Below, piece after piece: positions 14,731-39,211 of a DNA stretch of 64,000 nucleotides; position 1 is the stretch's first letter, and each line of letters opens with the position of its first letter. Source of the DNA: an uncultured Candidatus Saccharibacteria bacterium (lineage in GTDB: Bacteria; Patescibacteriota; Minisyncoccia; Phycocordibacterales; DATDWN01); assembly GCA_964551495.1 (NCBI GenBank), contig CAZKCA010000002.1, positions 19,648 through 83,647 on the forward strand, given 5' to 3'. The position numbers and the translations under genes were made by a program. The notes below the pieces were generated by a model that did not search any database, had not been told where the DNA came from, and was given only the letters and a program-made list of their open reading frames with translations.

Positions 14731-14916
14731 ATGGGAGACTATTCTGAATGCCCTCGTTGTGGTAACACCGAAAGTGGTGGTGTTTATCGATGTAATGATT
14801 GTGGTTGTATCTCTTGTAAAGAATGTGACTTGCCCGGGAGTCGCTGCCCAAGTTGCAAGAGTGACGACTATGATCTTATCGGGTACATCGATAGCGATGA
14901 AGACGATGATGATTGA
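14731..14916 (+). CDS. small Cys-rich zinc-ribbon protein with poly-acidic C-terminal tail, GC-anomalous
   Basis: 61 aa: MGDYSECPRCGNTESGGVYRCNDCGCISCKECDLPGSRCPSCKSDDYDLIGYIDSDEDDDD, with 9 Cys in CxxC-type spacing. Strong SD AAGGAG 6 nt upstream and a perfect palindromic terminator downstream. About 46% GC. Confidence 0.55.
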   Translation: MGDYSECPRCGNTESGGVYRCNDCGCISCKECDLPGSRCPSCKSDDYDLIGYIDSDEDDDD

Positions 14917-15565: not shown

Positions 15566-16246
15566 ATGGCACAGGAAAATGTTTGGGATAGGGAATATAG
15601 AGACTCTACTTTTTTGACTAAGAAAAATGAGCCCCAAGCTGATGTTGTGAGGTTTCTTAAATTTCTAAAAAAAGAAGGTTTAGTTTTAGAAAATTTAAAT
15701 ATTTTAGATCTTGGCTCTGGCACAGGCAGAAATAGTTTTTATTTTGCAGAATTAGGGAACAATGTATGGGGTTTAGAAATTTCAAAAACTGCCATAGACA
15801 TAGCTACACAGAATGCAAAAGAAGCGGGGTTAAATATAAAATATAAAAAACAAAGTATTGGAGAAAAATTCCCATTTGAAGATAATTTTTTTGACATTAT
15901 TTTAGATGTTACTTCTTCAAACTCATTAAATGAAAAAGAAAGAGAAATTTATTTAATTGAATCAAAAAGAGTGCTAAAAAATAATGGGTACTTTTTTGTT
16001 AAGGCTCTTTGTAAAGAAGGGGATAATAACGCAAAGTTTTTATTAAAAAACAATCCTGGGAAAGAAAAAGATACTTATATAATGCCTGAAACAGAGATAA
16101 TTGAGAGAGTTTGGTCAAAAGAAGATTTAGTGGAAACTTATGGAAAGTATTTCAAAATAATAAAAATCGATAAAAAAACAAGTTATACAAAGATAAATAA
16201 TCGCTCTTATAAAAGAAACTTCTGGATTGTTTATGTGAAAAATTGA
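15566..16246 (+). CDS. class I SAM-dependent methyltransferase
   Basis: Motif I ILDLGSGTGRNSFYFAELGNNVWGLEIS and motif II FDIILD. Co-directional with and immediately upstream of the Pro-rich sORF and the prolyl oligopeptidase gene. Confidence 0.7.
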   Translation: MAQENVWDREYRDSTFLTKKNEPQADVVRFLKFLKKEGLVLENLNILDLGSGTGRNSFYFAELGNNVWGLEISKTAIDIATQNAKEAGLNIKYKKQSIGEKFPFEDNFFDIILDVTSSNSLNEKEREIYLIESKRVLKNNGYFFVKALCKEGDNNAKFLLKNNPGKEKDTYIMPETEIIERVWSKEDLVETYGKYFKIIKIDKKTSYTKINNRSYKRNFWIVYVKN

Positions 16247-16305
16247 CATTATAATGTTAAGATGTATAATTGATGTAGGTGTAAATTCTTGAGAAAGGAG
16301 GCGGT

Positions 16306-16353
16306 ATGACCGACAAACCCCCTCATCTTCCGAGACCGCGACCTACAAAGTAG
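16306..16353 (+). CDS. 15-codon proline-rich sORF MTDKPPHLPRPRPTK (candidate leader/arrest peptide or oncocin-like peptide)
   Basis: ATG preceded by AAAGGAGG with 6-nt spacing; 60% GC in a 30% GC genome. A stop codon is followed 4 nt later by a GC hairpin and T-run. Confidence 0.4.
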   Translation: MTDKPPHLPRPRPTK

Positions 16354-16357
16354 GTTA

Positions 16358-16386
16358 AGGGGGGACAACATGTCCCCCTTTTCAAA
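16358..16386 (+). terminator. intrinsic terminator / candidate attenuator hairpin
   Basis: AGGGGGGAC-AACAT-GTCCCCCTTTT begins 4 nt after the sORF stop and ends 4 nt before the ATG of the prolyl oligopeptidase gene. Confidence 0.6.
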
Positions 16387-16389
16387 TAT

Positions 16390-18354
16390 ATGAAAAAAAT
16401 AAAAGACGAATATATTTTTATAGAAAATCTAGATAATCAAAAAACAAAAGTATTTATACAAAAATTGAAATCAGAGAGTAAAAAATACTTTAAAGAAAGT
16501 AAGCTAAAACAACAAATACGAAAAAGATTAATAGAGATTCAAAACATAAATCATTTTTCAGTTCCATTCATATCAGATAATGGAATGTTTTATGCTTTAA
16601 AAAATAAAAAAAATAAAGTCTATTCAGTTTTATATCTAGCCAATGGTTTATTCTCTCCATTTATAATAATAGATGGTAATAAGATTTATAAAAAAGGCTT
16701 AATCCTTAAGGAATGGATACCTAATAAAAAAGGAGATTTAATATTTTATAATGCGTCAAAATCTGACAATGATCAAGCGATATTTTTTGTATTTTATCTA
16801 AATACAAAAAAATCAGTGAGACAAGATATACCAAGTAATTTATACCCTGTTTTTCTTTGTTGGGACAATACAAAAGATGGGTTTTTTTACTCAAGATCAG
16901 ACGATAATGAATCTACAAGAAAAATATACCACCATAGACTAAATGATCATTATAAAAATGATGTTTTAATTTATAATAAAAATTTTAACCCTAAAGGATG
17001 GCCATCCATAAACATCTCAGAAGATGGAGAATATCAAATAATCAATATTTTTAATTTTTCTGACAAAGAAGGTGAGTATAATGATTTTTTTATAAGAAGA
17101 TCACTAGATGGTAGTATTAAACAAATAAAAGAAAGCAAAAAAACTATAAACTACTTTAAGTTTTATAAAAATTATGTTTATCGACTAACTAATAAAGATG
17201 CTGATAAATGGAAAATACAAAAAGCGAAAATTTCTGATTTATTAGTAAAATCAAAAATAAAGTGGATAGATGTAATAAAAGAAAAAAAACAAATTGTTGT
17301 ATCTTTTAAGATGGTAAATGATTTATTAATATTGAACAGATTTAATATCAAAGAATCAATAATTGAATTTTATGATTTGAAAGGTAAACTAATAAATACA
17401 GTTAATACAAATGGAATTATTGAATCAATTTCCTCAAAAGAAAACCACGATTACATATATTTAGATAGATCTTCTTTTGTGGAAAAAAATAATATTATAA
17501 AATTGTCTTTACAAAACAAAAAGATTGATTTCCTTTTTAATTCTAATTTCATATCAAATAAAAATGAATTTACTCAAAAAACAATTTATGTTAAATCTAG
17601 AGATTCTGTAAAAATTCCAGTTAATATTATCTACAAAAAAAACACCAAACTTAACTCAAAAAATCCTCTACTTTGTTATGGGTATGGAGGTTTTGGGGAA
17701 ATAGTAAAACCTTCTTTTAATAATTTAATTATACCTTTTATAGAAAAAGGAGGGATTTATGCTGAAATTGGAGTTAGAGGTGGAGGTGAATTTGGTACTA
17801 ATTGGCACAAAAATGGTAGTTTACTTAAAAAACTTAATTCTTTTAATGATTTTATTGATTCTTTAAAATATTTACATGGTAAAAAATATAGTAATCCAAA
17901 AAAAACAGTTATTTATGGATGGAGTAATGGAGGTTTATTAGTTTCAACCGTAGCAATTTCTAATCCAAATATAATTAAGGCTGCTGTAATAGGAGCTCCT
18001 CTAACAGATATGGTTAGATTTCATCTTTTTGGAGTTGGTAGATATTGGATAAGTGAATATGGAGACCCTAATAATATAAAATACTTAAATTATATACTAA
18101 AATATAGTCCTTATCATAATATTAAAAAAAATATAGTTTATCCTAGTATGTTATTTTTAGTAGGTGAAAGTGATGATAGAGTAAATCCTATGCACACCTA
18201 TAAATTTTCGTATAAATTAAAAAATAACAAATCTGACAAAAAATATATAGTAAGAATAGAAGAGAAGTCGGGTCACTCTATTTCAGCTATTTCAAATAAA
18301 GAAATTCAACAAAACACTGACATTTTATACTTTATTTTCAATGAGATATTTTAA
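16390..18354 (+). CDS. prolyl oligopeptidase family serine peptidase (S9A)
   Basis: 654 aa with an N-terminal propeller-like region and C-terminal alpha/beta hydrolase domain. Nucleophile motif GWSNGGLLV; DRVNPMHT region carrying the catalytic Asp, followed by the catalytic-His region SGHS. Confidence 0.85.
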   Translation: MKKIKDEYIFIENLDNQKTKVFIQKLKSESKKYFKESKLKQQIRKRLIEIQNINHFSVPFISDNGMFYALKNKKNKVYSVLYLANGLFSPFIIIDGNKIYKKGLILKEWIPNKKGDLIFYNASKSDNDQAIFFVFYLNTKKSVRQDIPSNLYPVFLCWDNTKDGFFYSRSDDNESTRKIYHHRLNDHYKNDVLIYNKNFNPKGWPSINISEDGEYQIINIFNFSDKEGEYNDFFIRRSLDGSIKQIKESKKTINYFKFYKNYVYRLTNKDADKWKIQKAKISDLLVKSKIKWIDVIKEKKQIVVSFKMVNDLLILNRFNIKESIIEFYDLKGKLINTVNTNGIIESISSKENHDYIYLDRSSFVEKNNIIKLSLQNKKIDFLFNSNFISNKNEFTQKTIYVKSRDSVKIPVNIIYKKNTKLNSKNPLLCYGYGGFGEIVKPSFNNLIIPFIEKGGIYAEIGVRGGGEFGTNWHKNGSLLKKLNSFNDFIDSLKYLHGKKYSNPKKTVIYGWSNGGLLVSTVAISNPNIIKAAVIGAPLTDMVRFHLFGVGRYWISEYGDPNNIKYLNYILKYSPYHNIKKNIVYPSMLFLVGESDDRVNPMHTYKFSYKLKNNKSDKKYIVRIEEKSGHSISAISNKEIQQNTDILYFIFNEIF

Positions 18355-25221: not shown

Positions 25222-26277
25222 ATGATAGATATACTGAAAATAGTAATACCTTCTGTTTTAACATTTTTTCTGGGTATATTTATTACTCCTTTTTTCACTA
25301 ATATATTCTATAAATATAAAATGTGGAAGAAAAATCCACGTACTGAAACAGGAGATATAACCTCTGAAGATTTTAATAGAATTCATAACACAAAAGGAGA
25401 ACTTTCTACACCCCGAATTGGCGGTGTTATTATTTGGATTTCAGTCCTACTAACAGTAGCAATCATATACTTAACTTCAGTTATATTTCCAACAGACCTA
25501 ACTTTAAAATTAAACTTTTTTAGTAGAAGCCAAACACTGATTCCTTTGTCCACACTTATCTTGGCGGCATGTATCGGATTGTTTGATGATATGATGCATA
25601 TTTTAGGGAAAGGAGCTTTTGCAAAAGACAATATAATATATAGAAAATTTAAAATTATACTAGTAACAATAATTGGTCTAGCTATATCTTTGTGGTTTTA
25701 TTTTAAACTAGATATGTCAACGGTCCATATTCCTTTCTGGGGAGAGTTCGATATATATTTATGGTTTATACCTTTCTTTATAATAGTTATGCTGGCTGTT
25801 TTTTCAACTTCTGTAATAGACGGAATGGACGGCCTTTCTGGAGGTGTATTGGTTACAATATTTACATCATATTCAATAATTGCTTTTGTAAACAACCAAA
25901 TAGATATTGCTGCATTTTGCGCTGTTTTGGCTGGGGGCATTTTAGCATTTCTTTGGTTTAATATACCACCTGCTAGATTTTATATGGGAGAAACTGGAAT
26001 GTTAGCCTTAACAACTACTTTAGCTGTTATAGCATTTCTAACTAATTCTGTAATACTGCTTATTATTATAGCTTTTCCTCTGGTTGCAACATCTGCTTCC
26101 GTTATAATTCAAATAATATCTTACAAGTTTTTTAATAAACATCGAGTCTTCAGAGTGGCACCACTTCATCACCATTTTGAAGCTATAGGATGGACTAGAG
26201 AAAAAGTAGTAATGAGATATTGGATTATTTCAGTTGTGTCAGCAATAACGGGAACAATCTTGGTTTTAATAAGCTAG
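25222..26277 (+). CDS. mraY: phospho-N-acetylmuramoyl-pentapeptide transferase
   Basis: Polytopic membrane protein with DDMMHILGKG, IDGMDGL and HHHFEAIGW motifs of MraY. Confidence 0.9.
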   Translation: MIDILKIVIPSVLTFFLGIFITPFFTNIFYKYKMWKKNPRTETGDITSEDFNRIHNTKGELSTPRIGGVIIWISVLLTVAIIYLTSVIFPTDLTLKLNFFSRSQTLIPLSTLILAACIGLFDDMMHILGKGAFAKDNIIYRKFKIILVTIIGLAISLWFYFKLDMSTVHIPFWGEFDIYLWFIPFFIIVMLAVFSTSVIDGMDGLSGGVLVTIFTSYSIIAFVNNQIDIAAFCAVLAGGILAFLWFNIPPARFYMGETGMLALTTTLAVIAFLTNSVILLIIIAFPLVATSASVIIQIISYKFFNKHRVFRVAPLHHHFEAIGWTREKVVMRYWIISVVSAITGTILVLIS

Positions 26278-38733: not shown

Positions 38734-39211
38734 ACAAAAACAAAAGAATAGCCAAAGGAACCAAAGTTAACCAGAACATATAATCATTTGAGAAAATGTT
38801 ATCCACACTACTTCCAAAGTTGTAAAAAGAATCTAGTGACACAACAGAATAGCTAAAGACTAATACCAAGACAACTAAAGCAAGTGAGTAAGCTATGATT
38901 TTCAGATATTTTGACCCGCCATATCCAACAGAAGAAACATACCTGCCAATTATTATATCTAGTGGTATTAGGAATATTAGAAATAAGACCACTTTATTTA
39001 TAAGCAAAGCTACACCCCCATCCATAAACAAAAGTTTATCTGTAAAAGGAAAACTACTAAAAAGATAAAGTGCTGGATAGAAAGAAAGAATAAGAGAAAT
39101 CATTCTGTTCTTTCCAAAGTAAAGAGCGTAAGAAAAAAATATAATGAATAAAACTAATAAAGCGATTATATCAGTTGAAACAAAAGAACCATTTAAAAGA
39201 TTTGAGAACAT
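38732..39211 (-). CDS. hypothetical polytopic membrane protein
   Basis: 159 aa with 4-5 predicted TM helices. No recognisable family. Confidence 0.45.
   Translation of the reverse strand: MFSNLLNGSFVSTDIIALLVLFIIFFSYALYFGKNRMISLILSFYPALYLFSSFPFTDKLLFMDGGVALLINKVVLFLIFLIPLDIIIGRYVSSVGYGGSKYLKIIAYSLALVVLVLVFSYSVVSLDSFYNFGSSVDNIFSNDYMFWLTLVPLAILLFL

Follow-up and report, generated by a model that had tools for sequence, protein, structure and literature searches.

An oncocin-like short open reading frame and a prolyl oligopeptidase gene form a candidate peptide–peptidase cassette in one clade of Patescibacteria

A two-gene peptide–peptidase cassette, in which a short open reading frame (sORF) for an oncocin-like peptide precedes a gene for an S9A prolyl oligopeptidase (POP), is inherited jointly in one clade of Patescibacteria, as judged from the loci compared and from the phylogeny of the POP. 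The cassette lies in a 64,000-nucleotide stretch of DNA from an uncultured Candidatus Saccharibacteria bacterium, the whole of which is called the window here. The reading we favor, at a rough probability of 0.45, is that the peptide would be a free binder of the ribosomal exit tunnel and the POP its cognate peptidase. The cassette is built from the following features.

16243..16270, + strand: sigma-70-type promoter; TTGACA at 16243–16248, a 16-nt spacer and TATAAT at 16265–16270, matching the consensus at 12/12 positions
16294..16301, + strand: Shine–Dalgarno sequence AAAGGAGG, separated by 4 nt from the ATG of the sORF
16306..16353, + strand: sORF of 15 codons, ATG at 16306 and TAG at 16351–16353, encoding MTDKPPHLPRPRPTK, which is oncocin-like (class I PrAMP-like)
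16357..16382, + strand: intrinsic-terminator-like hairpin and U-run; stem AAGGGGGGACA/UGUCCCCCUU, 3-nt loop ACA, dG −17.6 kcal/mol
16370..16393, + strand: optional mini-ORF of 7 codons (MSPFSNI), starting in the hairpin loop, with a TGA that overlaps the POP ATG (ATGA); of uncertain significance
16390..18354, + strand: S9A prolyl oligopeptidase, 654 aa, with Pfam domains PF02897 and PF00326 and intact GWSNGG, DDRV and SGHS motifs

An earlier note on this DNA had described the 15-codon oncocin-like sORF, and its presence at 16306–16353 is confirmed. The promoter, which went unmentioned there, is the best-scoring one of the scanned region, and transcription is predicted to start at about 16277. 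The Shine–Dalgarno (SD) sequence is as strong as was claimed but is spaced 4 nt, not 6 nt, from the ATG. Likewise, the sORF is indeed a GC patch, with figures of 54% against 32.5% for the window in place of 60% against 30%. Of the window's 45 long ORFs, only 1 has an SD-like motif. In a genome so nearly devoid of SDs, a POP gene without one is nothing special, and the anomaly is instead the strong SD of the sORF. The argument from the lack of a separate SD and promoter for the POP gene consequently fails, and the missing SD was rejected as evidence of coupling. The sORF holds the sole PRPRP/HLPRP motif within the window, and the rare codons CCC and CCG, each making up 5% of Pro codons, occupy three of its five Pro positions.

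The hairpin itself spans 16357–16381, starting 3 nt past the sORF stop, and the U-run (16379–16382) is followed by CAAATAT and then by the POP ATG at 16390, a gap of 7 nt. A hairpin with a T-run between the two genes had been correctly recognized, while the distances of 4 nt given for both sides had not. A rule-based terminator scan missed the hairpin, the U-run of which consists of 4 U only, and termination here is probably partial. An arrangement like that of the MSPFSNI mini-ORF was also seen in L031, one of the further lineages introduced below, with an in-frame variant in L032 and an out-of-frame one in L030, and is absent from L001 and L002. A start codon in the hairpin loop, or a relay through the mini-ORF, was rejected as a mechanism given this inconsistency among loci.

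The sORF–hairpin–POP cassette was read directly in five further Patescibacteria lineages (L001, L002, L030, L031 and L032), so that both sORF and hairpin are conserved at orthologous loci, a check that the earlier note had proposed. The cassette appears to be present in two more lineages, these additional members of the POP clade showing a PPxLPxPR footprint, out of frame and inside over-called N-termini. The POPs of cassette-bearing lineages share just 34–52% identity with one another. The core [DE]-[KRL]-P-P-[HYT]-L-P-x-P-R is kept in all six lineages, the window included. Each of its invariant residues (P, P, L, P, P and R) is encoded by three to four different codons across the six, the Arg by both AGR and CGN and the Leu by both CTN and TTG. 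Among the three closest lineages, codon differences are 6–7 synonymous versus 0–1 non-synonymous (P ≤ 1.5e-4 per pair under random placement). By these codon comparisons, the core is shown to be maintained by selection on its amino acids.

The surrounding anatomy is similarly kept. All six sORFs have an SD of the form AAAGGAG(G) or AAGGGGGTGA, and reading by eye revealed an exact TTGACA −35 box upstream of the sORF in L001, L002, L030 and L031. A hairpin occupies the equivalent place in 6/6 loci (−14.8 to −23.7 kcal/mol), differing in sequence and in several cases followed by a short U-run, with 2–13 nt between stop and stem. The peptides are 15–23 residues long, with 6 to 15 residues ahead of the H/Y/T-Leu pair, and each ends in Pro plus one or two residues (P-TK, P-KK, P-R, P-K). 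From core to stop there are 0, 2, 2, 2, 3 and 10 residues, that is, 0–3 codons in five of the six lineages.

The gene neighborhoods differ and have only the sORF–POP pair in common; no exporter, other immunity gene, modifying enzyme or transporter is conserved beside the cassette in the neighborhoods compared. A MacB-type ABC system lies upstream in L032 only. The L002-type locus, compared in all nine of its copies, does not vary in this region and is hence uninformative as to microdiversity. A strict DKPP[HY]LPxPRP scan of 185,579 species genomes gave one match, in L002's own species. A relaxed pattern gave 17 matches in JGI metagenomes, two of them real (L002 species) and 15 due to chance in GC-rich DNA, all of the latter without the SD–ATG–stop–hairpin anatomy. 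The pattern scan of viral contigs gave 0 matches, and tblastn with the L002 peptide against plasmid and phage records gave no meaningful match. Both patterns are too narrow for the ERPP[YT]L variants, which were found later through the POP phylogeny.

Comparison to proline-rich antimicrobial peptides (PrAMPs) gives the core a possible meaning. The oncocin sequence, VDKPPYLPRPRPPRRIYNR, was confirmed from the literature, and the window peptide minus its Met has 10 identities to it at offset 0, as the earlier note had stated; the L002 peptide has 11, over 12–13 positions. Oncocin VDKPPYLPRPRP, window TDKPPHLPRPRP and L002 VDKPPHLPRPRP share the same core. Only 1 of 300,000 composition-preserving shuffles equaled the window–oncocin score (1–17 across the peptides compared), which places the match beyond Pro/Arg composition, another check proposed earlier. 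Residues 5–13 of PR-39 are identical to RPPYLPRPR of L030 (9/9).

The class I consensus (R/K)XX(R/Y)LPRPR is "required for strong binding" (PMC11484942). L030 matches it exactly (R-P-P-Y-L-P-R-P-R), and the window and L002 have K-P-P-H-L-P-R-P-R. L001 deviates by having Q in place of R, L031 by T in place of Y, and L032 by both T in place of R and L in place of K. Compared to oncocin, Y6H is the sole core change of the window peptide. In rumicidin-2, His14 sits in the A-site cleft where Onc112 has Tyr6 (PMC11484942), Y6H is tolerated in deep mutational scanning of oncocin (PMC10862732), and [Tyr6His]-Onc112 shows equal or twofold activity (PMC9306569). The mutation-intolerant sites of metalnikowin, D2, Y6, P8 and P10 (PMC10862732), have their equivalents at conserved positions of the sORF peptides.

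The sORF peptides come close in length to active oncocin 14–15-mers, and the 14-mer Onc14 is active intracellularly as well as from outside the cell (PMC12529121). The N-terminus of oncocin is critical, and an N-terminal linker has been used to keep oncocin inactive (PMC12529121). In the window and L001, the segment before the (R/Y)-Leu pair has 6 residues with Met and 5 without, in register with oncocin. The other four lineages have 9–15 residues there, which would need trimming or tolerance, given that the segment invading the peptidyl-transferase centre (PTC) in class I is ~5–8 residues long. Published criteria for PrAMPs (Box 1, PMC7736402) set Pro at ≥25% and charge at ≥ +1, take a PRP motif as indicative but not essential, and hold antimicrobial activity together with a 70S and/or DnaK target to be essential. 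Pro content is 33% in the window peptide and 26–41% over the six peptides, and net charge is +3 in the window and from +1 (L032) to +5 (L031) overall, all of which pass these thresholds; every peptide has one or two PRP motifs.

With respect to animal host defence and a secreted precursor, the peptide derives from a bacterial sORF that has neither signal peptide nor pro-region, so it would be PrAMP-like in its working at most and not a PrAMP by origin. Unlike the class I PrAMPs oncocin, Bac7 and PR-39, which come from secreted animal precursors, the sORFs are bacterial, leaderless and 15–23 codons long. Their peptides have no cationic C-terminal tail to assist uptake, several bear acidic N-terminal extensions, and all are genetically coupled to a POP. 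PMC12056610, for one, describes PrAMPs as innate-immunity peptides of animals and plants, and no example of a bacterial PrAMP was found in the literature searched.

The best PDB match of the window POP is prolyl endopeptidase 2BKL (E 3e-81, full length). E-values to 2BKL and porcine PEP range from 3e-81 to 2e-70, versus ~1e-60 for the macrocyclases GmPOPB and PCY1; OphP is, like these two, a detectable relative. The enzyme is predicted to be of the cytoplasmic type with a short N-terminus, a canonical post-proline endopeptidase and not obviously a macrocyclase. In the phylogeny, it belongs to a sORF-linked clade with a bootstrap of 194/200. The sORF is carried by 6/6 POPs examined inside this clade and 0/5 outside it, a distribution that shows co-inheritance of the sORF with one POP clade. 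The S9A enzymes oligopeptidase B (OpB) of E. coli, GmPOPB, PCY1 and OphP share with the window POP their protease family, which has a β-propeller plus α/β-hydrolase build and acts on short peptides only, and POPB and PCY1 process dedicated ribosomal peptides. OpB, from which the window POP differs in that OpB is specific for basic residues, is reported to proteolyse PrAMPs (Mattiuzzo 2014, as cited in PMC8533160). No report of a dedicated co-inherited substrate gene for bacterial POPs was found in the literature searched.

In the mechanism that we propose, the strong promoter and rare strong SD would give abundant unmodified peptide of 15–23 residues, the conserved core of which, in the form [DE]-[KR]-P-P-[H/Y]-L-P-R-P-R, would be the ribosome-binding pharmacophore of class I PrAMPs (oncocin, PR-39, Bac7). 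Released peptide would enter the vacant exit tunnel and PTC of the 70S ribosome and keep initiated ribosomes from passing into elongation; the ribosomes affected would be those of the producer itself, with the peptide as a growth brake or a toxin, or those of a partner or host. The hairpin would end most transcripts, yielding an abundant peptide message, with POP made from read-through at a low ratio, as for mccA–mccB of microcin C. By cutting after Pro in short peptides, the POP would inactivate the peptide, for turnover or immunity, and it may also trim the longer N-terminal extensions of some lineages. Sequence comparison shows the anatomy, the selection on the peptide, its joint inheritance with one POP clade and its fit to the PrAMP consensus; that it binds ribosomes, in which cells it acts and what the POP does are what we infer. 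The earlier note had offered a leader peptide, a translation inhibitor and a RiPP precursor as non-exclusive readings, and these are supported in part: the inhibitor fits the sequence best, owing to the class I consensus, an acidic and a basic residue ahead of PP, and the tolerated Y6H. Somewhat more tentatively, Patescibacteria may have evolved independently the pharmacophore found in insects (oncocin) and mammals (PR-39, Bac7), deploying an unmodified class I PrAMP against host or competitor ribosomes or as a brake of their own, with the POP as antidote or turnover enzyme.

In microcin C, the mccA–terminator–mccB arrangement produces a plentiful short transcript along with a scarcer one that reads through the terminator (PMC4231749). 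The cassette is similar in that its tiny ORF, preceded by a strong ribosome-binding site, is followed first by an intrinsic terminator and next by a gene for a peptide-acting enzyme, although here the action of enzyme on peptide is presumed. It differs in encoding a peptidase, whereas MccB adenylates and the product is a peptide-nucleotide. The microcin C operon also holds export and immunity genes, none of which is conserved with the cassette, and its upstream anti-terminator sequence has no demonstrable counterpart there.

Several observations weigh against a free tunnel binder. With a net charge of only +1 to +2, the L032 and L030 peptides would be poorly taken up as external antimicrobials, and neither an exporter nor any other immunity gene consistently accompanies the cassette. 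N-terminal length varies from 6 to 15 even though the oncocin N-terminus is critical, and in five of the six lineages the core lies near the stop with the hairpin 2–13 nt on, a layout that would suit a cis-acting leader too. L001, L031 and L032 fall outside the strict consensus (Q/T for Arg9, T for Tyr6). By cutting within the pharmacophore (after PP, LP and RP), the POP would set up a futile cycle of synthesis and degradation that needs explaining, and the ribosomes of the producer would be at risk unless insensitive.

Should the peptide be a tunnel binder with a cognate peptidase, it would be the first prokaryotic PrAMP and would introduce a new peptide–peptidase toxin/antidote logic. It would represent a third independent invention of one bacterial-ribosome plug, informing which sequences block the tunnel and PTC, and would offer a first molecular handle on the manipulation of translation, their own or that of a host, by ultra-small episymbiotic CPR bacteria. 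The natural variants (H/Y/T at position 6, Q/T at 9, short C-termini) can be compared with deep-mutational data for antibiotic design. Prolyl oligopeptidases are also suggested as dedicated PrAMP-handling enzymes, with a bearing on resistance to PrAMP drugs. The system is small, comprising a 15-mer and one enzyme.

Alternatively, the sORF may encode a leader peptide acting in cis as a ribosome-dependent attenuator of the POP gene. We consider this less likely, yet it stays alive because the terminator and POP always follow the sORF. Contacts between nascent chain and tunnel would slow a ribosome down or arrest it, at PP/PRPR or on reaching the stop codon, and this ribosome, sitting 2–13 nt from the terminator stem, would prevent or permit the hairpin. 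POP transcription would thereby be tied to translation status, be it the supply of prolyl-tRNA or EF-P, release-factor activity or a tunnel-bound small ligand. The order of promoter, sORF, hairpin with U-run and POP in 6/6 loci is consistent with such a leader. The spacers, read by eye, contain no consistent separate POP promoter, so the POP is probably reliant on read-through. A conserved C-terminal stretch of 10–12 residues beside a variable N-terminal part is what arrest peptides typically show. Arg/Pro-rich sequences can lie in the tunnel both ways round, one of these being the orientation of a nascent chain (PMC13233979). Rare Pro codons would likewise favor pausing in the window sORF, but they are unconserved, with common codons in L001, and were rejected as a conserved pausing device.

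A starvation attenuator needs regulatory codons only, and here the identities of D/E, K/R, H/Y, L and R are kept; that conservation acts on residue identities and not on codon content makes a classical amino-acid-starvation attenuator unlikely. Arrest at a stop codon depends on exact spacing, but the core–stop register is unfixed. Pairing of the sORF with the 5′ arm of the terminator does not exceed the level of dinucleotide shuffles (combined p 0.13). A specific antiterminator was rejected accordingly: mononucleotide shuffles of the UTR plus sORF gave p 0.02–0.07, a signal lost with dinucleotide shuffles and the sORF alone. No alternative antiterminator RNA structure was detected in the loci compared, among which the upstream fold is unconserved. 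Lastly, it would take an unexplained coincidence for a leader to be nearly identical to the N-terminal, PTC-invading segment of class I PrAMPs, which bind in the orientation opposite to that of a nascent chain.

TnaC, SpeFL, ErmCL and the pyrBI leader are short ORFs, conserved in amino acids, that lie upstream of a gene in one transcription unit. The cassette resembles them in placing a short conserved ORF 5′ of a catabolic enzyme gene with a termination signal between. Unlike arrest and attenuator leaders, it has no fixed core–stop spacing and no detected alternative RNA structure, and its sequence copies a trans-acting inhibitor that binds opposite to a nascent chain. If cis-acting, the sORFs would make up a new family of arrest peptides mirroring a trans-acting inhibitor, of interest for ribosome mechanics.

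It is improbable that the peptide is a precursor or substrate from which the POP makes something else, such as a macrocyclic or trimmed RiPP-like product, a signalling or DnaK-binding product or one with a non-ribosomal target. S9A POPs do serve as macrocyclases in the amatoxin, orbitide and omphalotin pathways, where GmPOPB, PCY1 and OphP are the detectable relatives, and the Pro plus one or two basic residues ending each peptide could serve the POP as cleavage site or as leaving group. The POP macrocyclases GmPOPB and PCY1 use a C-terminal recognition (follower) sequence. Such a follower is absent here, with one or two residues past the last Pro in every lineage, and the POP is nearer to canonical prolyl endopeptidases than to macrocyclases, which together make the RiPP the weakest of the three earlier readings. 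An sORF–terminator–enzyme order is typical for peptide natural-product operons (PMC4231749), and DnaK too is bound by YLPRP-type motifs (PMC7736402). Even so, the neighborhoods have no further modifying enzyme and no transporter in common, and the conserved residues are those of the ribosome-binding consensus, unlike any known RiPP core.

A structured RNA that codes for nothing (riboswitch or sRNA), or an ORF arisen by chance with coincidental peptide likeness, would account for a GC-rich island that has a promoter and a terminator to itself, a good fold (z = −4.4) and GUAGGU/ACCUAC/GUAGGU repeats on either side of the window sORF, but Rfam 15 gave no match for the + strand at 16270–16392 at E up to 10 (nor for the whole window at gathering score), the window stems are unconserved in L001 and L002, and the chance metagenome motifs lack the cassette anatomy. 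A riboswitch or sRNA closed by a GUAGGU/ACCUAC stem was discarded on the Rfam nulls, the unconserved stems and the peptide-level conservation. Variation falls at synonymous positions while frame, SD and stop are kept in six lineages, and this codon-level conservation effectively refutes an RNA or chance-ORF origin.

The locus layout described in the earlier note was borne out with small corrections. A Shine-Dalgarno (SD) sequence and a small open reading frame (sORF) for an oncocin-like peptide are followed by a hairpin and an S9A prolyl oligopeptidase (POP) gene.

16243–16270, + strand: sigma-70-type promoter (TTGACA, 16 nt, TATAAT; 12/12 matches), upstream of the SD
16294–16301, + strand: SD, AAAGGAGG, 4 nt before the sORF
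16306–16353, + strand: sORF of 15 codons, translated as MTDKPPHLPRPRPTK
starting 3 nt past the sORF TAG, + strand: hairpin AAGGGGGGACA/UGUCCCCCUU, 11 bp, 4-U run, dG −17.6 kcal/mol
16390–18354, + strand: POP, 654 aa, its ATG (16390) 7 nt beyond the U-run; Pfam Peptidase_S9_N and Peptidase_S9

The three spacings replace values of 6, 4 and 4 nt, respectively. The GC contrast is real, at 54% for the sORF against 32.5% for the window rather than 60% against 30%. Judged from sequence, the sORF–POP pairing is real, conserved and unusual. It would constitute a new two-gene architecture, a sORF resembling proline-rich antimicrobial peptides (PrAMPs) with a dedicated POP clade, of putative function.

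Having its own promoter and terminator and a fold z of −4.4, the sORF patch was first suspected to be a riboswitch or small RNA. This was dropped, as no Rfam family matched the patch at any E up to 10 and conservation is at the peptide level. Rfam gave no match anywhere in the window, and ARAGORN found no tRNA or tmRNA. The decisive evidence for a peptide is that two related loci encode like peptides. Locus L001 is syntenic, with a POP 52% identical to that of the window, and encodes MTDKPPHLPQPRPQPRPQPPKK at the corresponding place. Locus L002, from the Parcubacteria GW2011 lineage, has different neighbouring genes and a POP 40% identical, and encodes MGYLYADKPGVDKPPHLPRPRPR. Each carries AAAGGAG(G), a U-run hairpin and then the POP start. 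Over an 11-codon core, pairs among the three differ by 6–7 synonymous and 0–1 non-synonymous codons, a bias with P ≤ 1.5e-4 per pair under random substitution placement. The window sORF is rich in codons rare in the genome, with CCC and CCG (5% each of Pro codons) at 3/5 Pro positions and CGA, ACC and GAC also present; the L001 sORF is built from common codons, so this usage is not conserved. GTAGGT, ACCTAC and GTAGGT at 16277–16282, 16343–16348 and 16352–16357 could form two mutually exclusive stems bracketing the sORF and its stop codon; these are absent from L001 and L002 and particular to the window.

Back-translated pattern scans of 185,579 species-representative genomes and JGI metagenomes recovered the L002 species only. 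The other 15 metagenome matches were chance occurrences in GC-rich DNA that lack the sORF anatomy, and a scan of viral contigs gave no matches. Searching via the POPs of other Patescibacteria was more productive than peptide patterns and yielded three further sORF loci, L030 (MENDKKPPERPPYLPRPR), L031 ((M)RGKPPERPPTLPRPRPK) and L032 (MREDKDLPPHLPTPRPR). Their POPs are ~34% identical to the window POP, and each has a strong SD and a pre-POP hairpin of −21 to −24 kcal/mol. The earlier note had proposed looking for conservation at orthologous loci; sORF and hairpin precede POP in five further loci. No sORF was found at five other POP loci, in CPR-type genomes (L026, L033, L034) or before secreted POPs (L028, L029). 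In a distance tree, 6/6 sORF-linked POPs form a single clade with all sORF-free POPs outside (bootstrap 194/200). Two more clade members with over-called N-termini, P0447 and P0458, one annotated as Patescibacteria group bacterium, show an out-of-frame PPxLPxPR footprint against a background of 2.8e-4 per scan window, and P0003, used as positive control, shows it too. The six directly read peptides share invariant P, P, L, P, P and R residues, each written with 3–4 codons (Arg as AGR and CGN, Leu as CTN and TTG). The family consensus is [DE]-[KRL]-P-P-[HYT]-L-P-[RQT]-P-R-(P)-(x)-[KR]-stop. Because of this residue-level conservation and the clade co-inheritance, we infer that the sORF is a real, translated and ancient partner of one POP clade. 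In several lineages it is hidden from annotation by over-extended POP calls: those of L002 (5001–5117; true start ATG 5118), P0003, P0447 and P0458 read across sORF and hairpin in another frame, adding ~40 surplus residues.

Comparison sequences were confirmed in the literature: oncocin VDKPPYLPRPRPPRRIYNR, natural Oncopeltus peptide 4 VDKPPYLPRPPPPRRIYNNR, pyrrhocoricin, metalnikowin, PR-39, Bac7 and Tur1A. Without its Met, the window peptide shares 10 identical residues with oncocin at offset 0, and the L002 peptide matches at 11/13. Against the published class I consensus for ribosome binding, (R/K)XX(R/Y)LPRPR (PMC11484942), the window peptide reads K-P-P-H-L-P-R-P-R. A chance match, a concern already raised for the window peptide, is not what we found: the similarity exceeds Pro/Arg composition, with 1 of 300,000 composition-preserving shuffles doing as well, and 17 and 6 for the other two peptides. 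PR-39 residues 5–13 are identical to RPPYLPRPR of L030. For histidine at the aromatic/cationic position, rumicidin-2 offers a structural parallel: its His14 fills the A-site cleft at the place taken by Tyr6 in Onc112 and by Arg9 in Bac7 (PMC11484942). Deep mutational scanning shows that oncocin tolerates Y6H (PMC10862732), and [Tyr6His]-Onc112 has its parent's activity or twice it (PMC9306569). The mutation-intolerant D2, Y6, P8 and P10 of metalnikowin are conserved positions of the sORF peptides, and the 14-mer Onc14 is active within cells and from outside (PMC12529121). All sequence features of a proposed PrAMP definition are present (Pro ≥ 25%, net charge ≥ +1, PRP motif). The literature searched held no paper on such peptides in bacteria or on a link to POP. 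By origin the peptide falls outside the animal families, yet by its residues it comes nearest to a bacterial class I (oncocin/Bac7/PR-39-type) PrAMP.

The closest solved relative of the window POP is Myxococcus xanthus prolyl endopeptidase (2BKL, E 3e-81, full length), while oligopeptidase B aligns in the catalytic domain only. Together with the Pfam domains and the motifs GWSNGG, DDRV and SGHS, this match shows the protein to be a genuine S9A prolyl oligopeptidase, as first proposed. According to Mattiuzzo 2014 (as cited in PMC8533160), PrAMPs are degraded by oligopeptidase B, an S9A relative.

SD motifs are near-absent, preceding 1/45 long ORFs in the window and 0/9, 1/12 and 0/11 genes in L001, L002 and L026. 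Many genes at these loci are suggested to be leaderless, and many have a TATAAT box 6–10 nt before the ATG (for example, the + strand start at 25222 and the − strand ends at 39211, 40335, 47548 and 59738). The POP gene was said to lack an SD and promoter of its own; the spacers indeed show neither an SD nor a consistent separate promoter, but the missing SD is normal because the genome hardly uses them. The perfect SD of the sORF is exceptional in the genome and conserved across loci. Hairpins occur at every sORF locus with differing sequences, and since several have short U-runs, partial termination is suggested. The layout matches the microcin C operon, where mccA, of 7 codons, is separated from mccB by an intrinsic terminator, so that the short mRNA for the peptide is abundant and the read-through transcript is minor (PMC4231749).

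The best-supported reading, with a rough probability of 0.45, is a peptide–peptidase cassette. Abundant free peptide would occupy the ribosomal tunnel and peptidyl-transferase centre in the class I PrAMP manner, and POP, produced at a low ratio, would hydrolyse it as its cognate enzyme, whether for turnover, for immunity or to trim the N-terminus. Against this, no exporter is conserved alongside, the peptide has low net charge in two lineages, its N-terminal extensions are variable and some long, and POP cuts would fall inside the pharmacophore. A cis-acting leader is the main alternative, less probable than the cassette but not mutually exclusive with it: the hairpin begins 2–13 nt past the sORF stop, the conserved part of the peptide is its C-terminal end, and a nascent-chain orientation in the tunnel is possible for Arg/Pro peptides (PMC13233979). 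However, antiterminator pairing is not above chance, the core-to-stop distance varies, and a leader leaves the copying of a trans-acting pharmacophore unexplained. A RiPP or macrocyclisation role is improbable, as the peptide has no follower sequence and POP is not macrocyclase-like. A non-coding or chance origin of the sORF is excluded by the codon pattern.

At several loci the terminator 5′ arm is itself SD-like (GGGGGG, GGAGGGTGA, ACGGGGTGA) with a start codon in the hairpin loop (window 16370–16393, L031 2448–2504, L032 2465, L030 2449). In the window and L031, the TGA of the resulting mini-ORF overlaps the POP ATG (ATGA); the loop start is in frame with POP in L032, out of frame in L030 and missing from L001 and L002. 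The arrangement is a hint that translation is relayed from the sORF to POP. Directly upstream of the L032 cassette (1–2047) lies a MacB-type export system (YknX/HlyD-like adaptor, FtsX permease, ABC ATPase), a possible peptide exporter that is not conserved at other loci. Upstream of the L030 cassette (1–2095), the region is flanked by two genes for M16 (pitrilysin-type) peptidases, suggesting a peptide-catabolism neighbourhood. At a contig end (L027, 1–50), the POP gene of another locus is directly preceded by a tRNA-like sequence, present as its 3′ end. Elsewhere in the window, the ORF at 14731–14916 (+) encodes 61 aa, rich in Cys and zinc-ribbon-like, that end in an acidic tail (MGDYSECPRCGNTESGGVYRCNDCGCISCKECDLPGSRCPSCKSDDYDLIGYIDSDEDDDD); it has a histidine kinase gene on one side and methyltransferase genes on the other.
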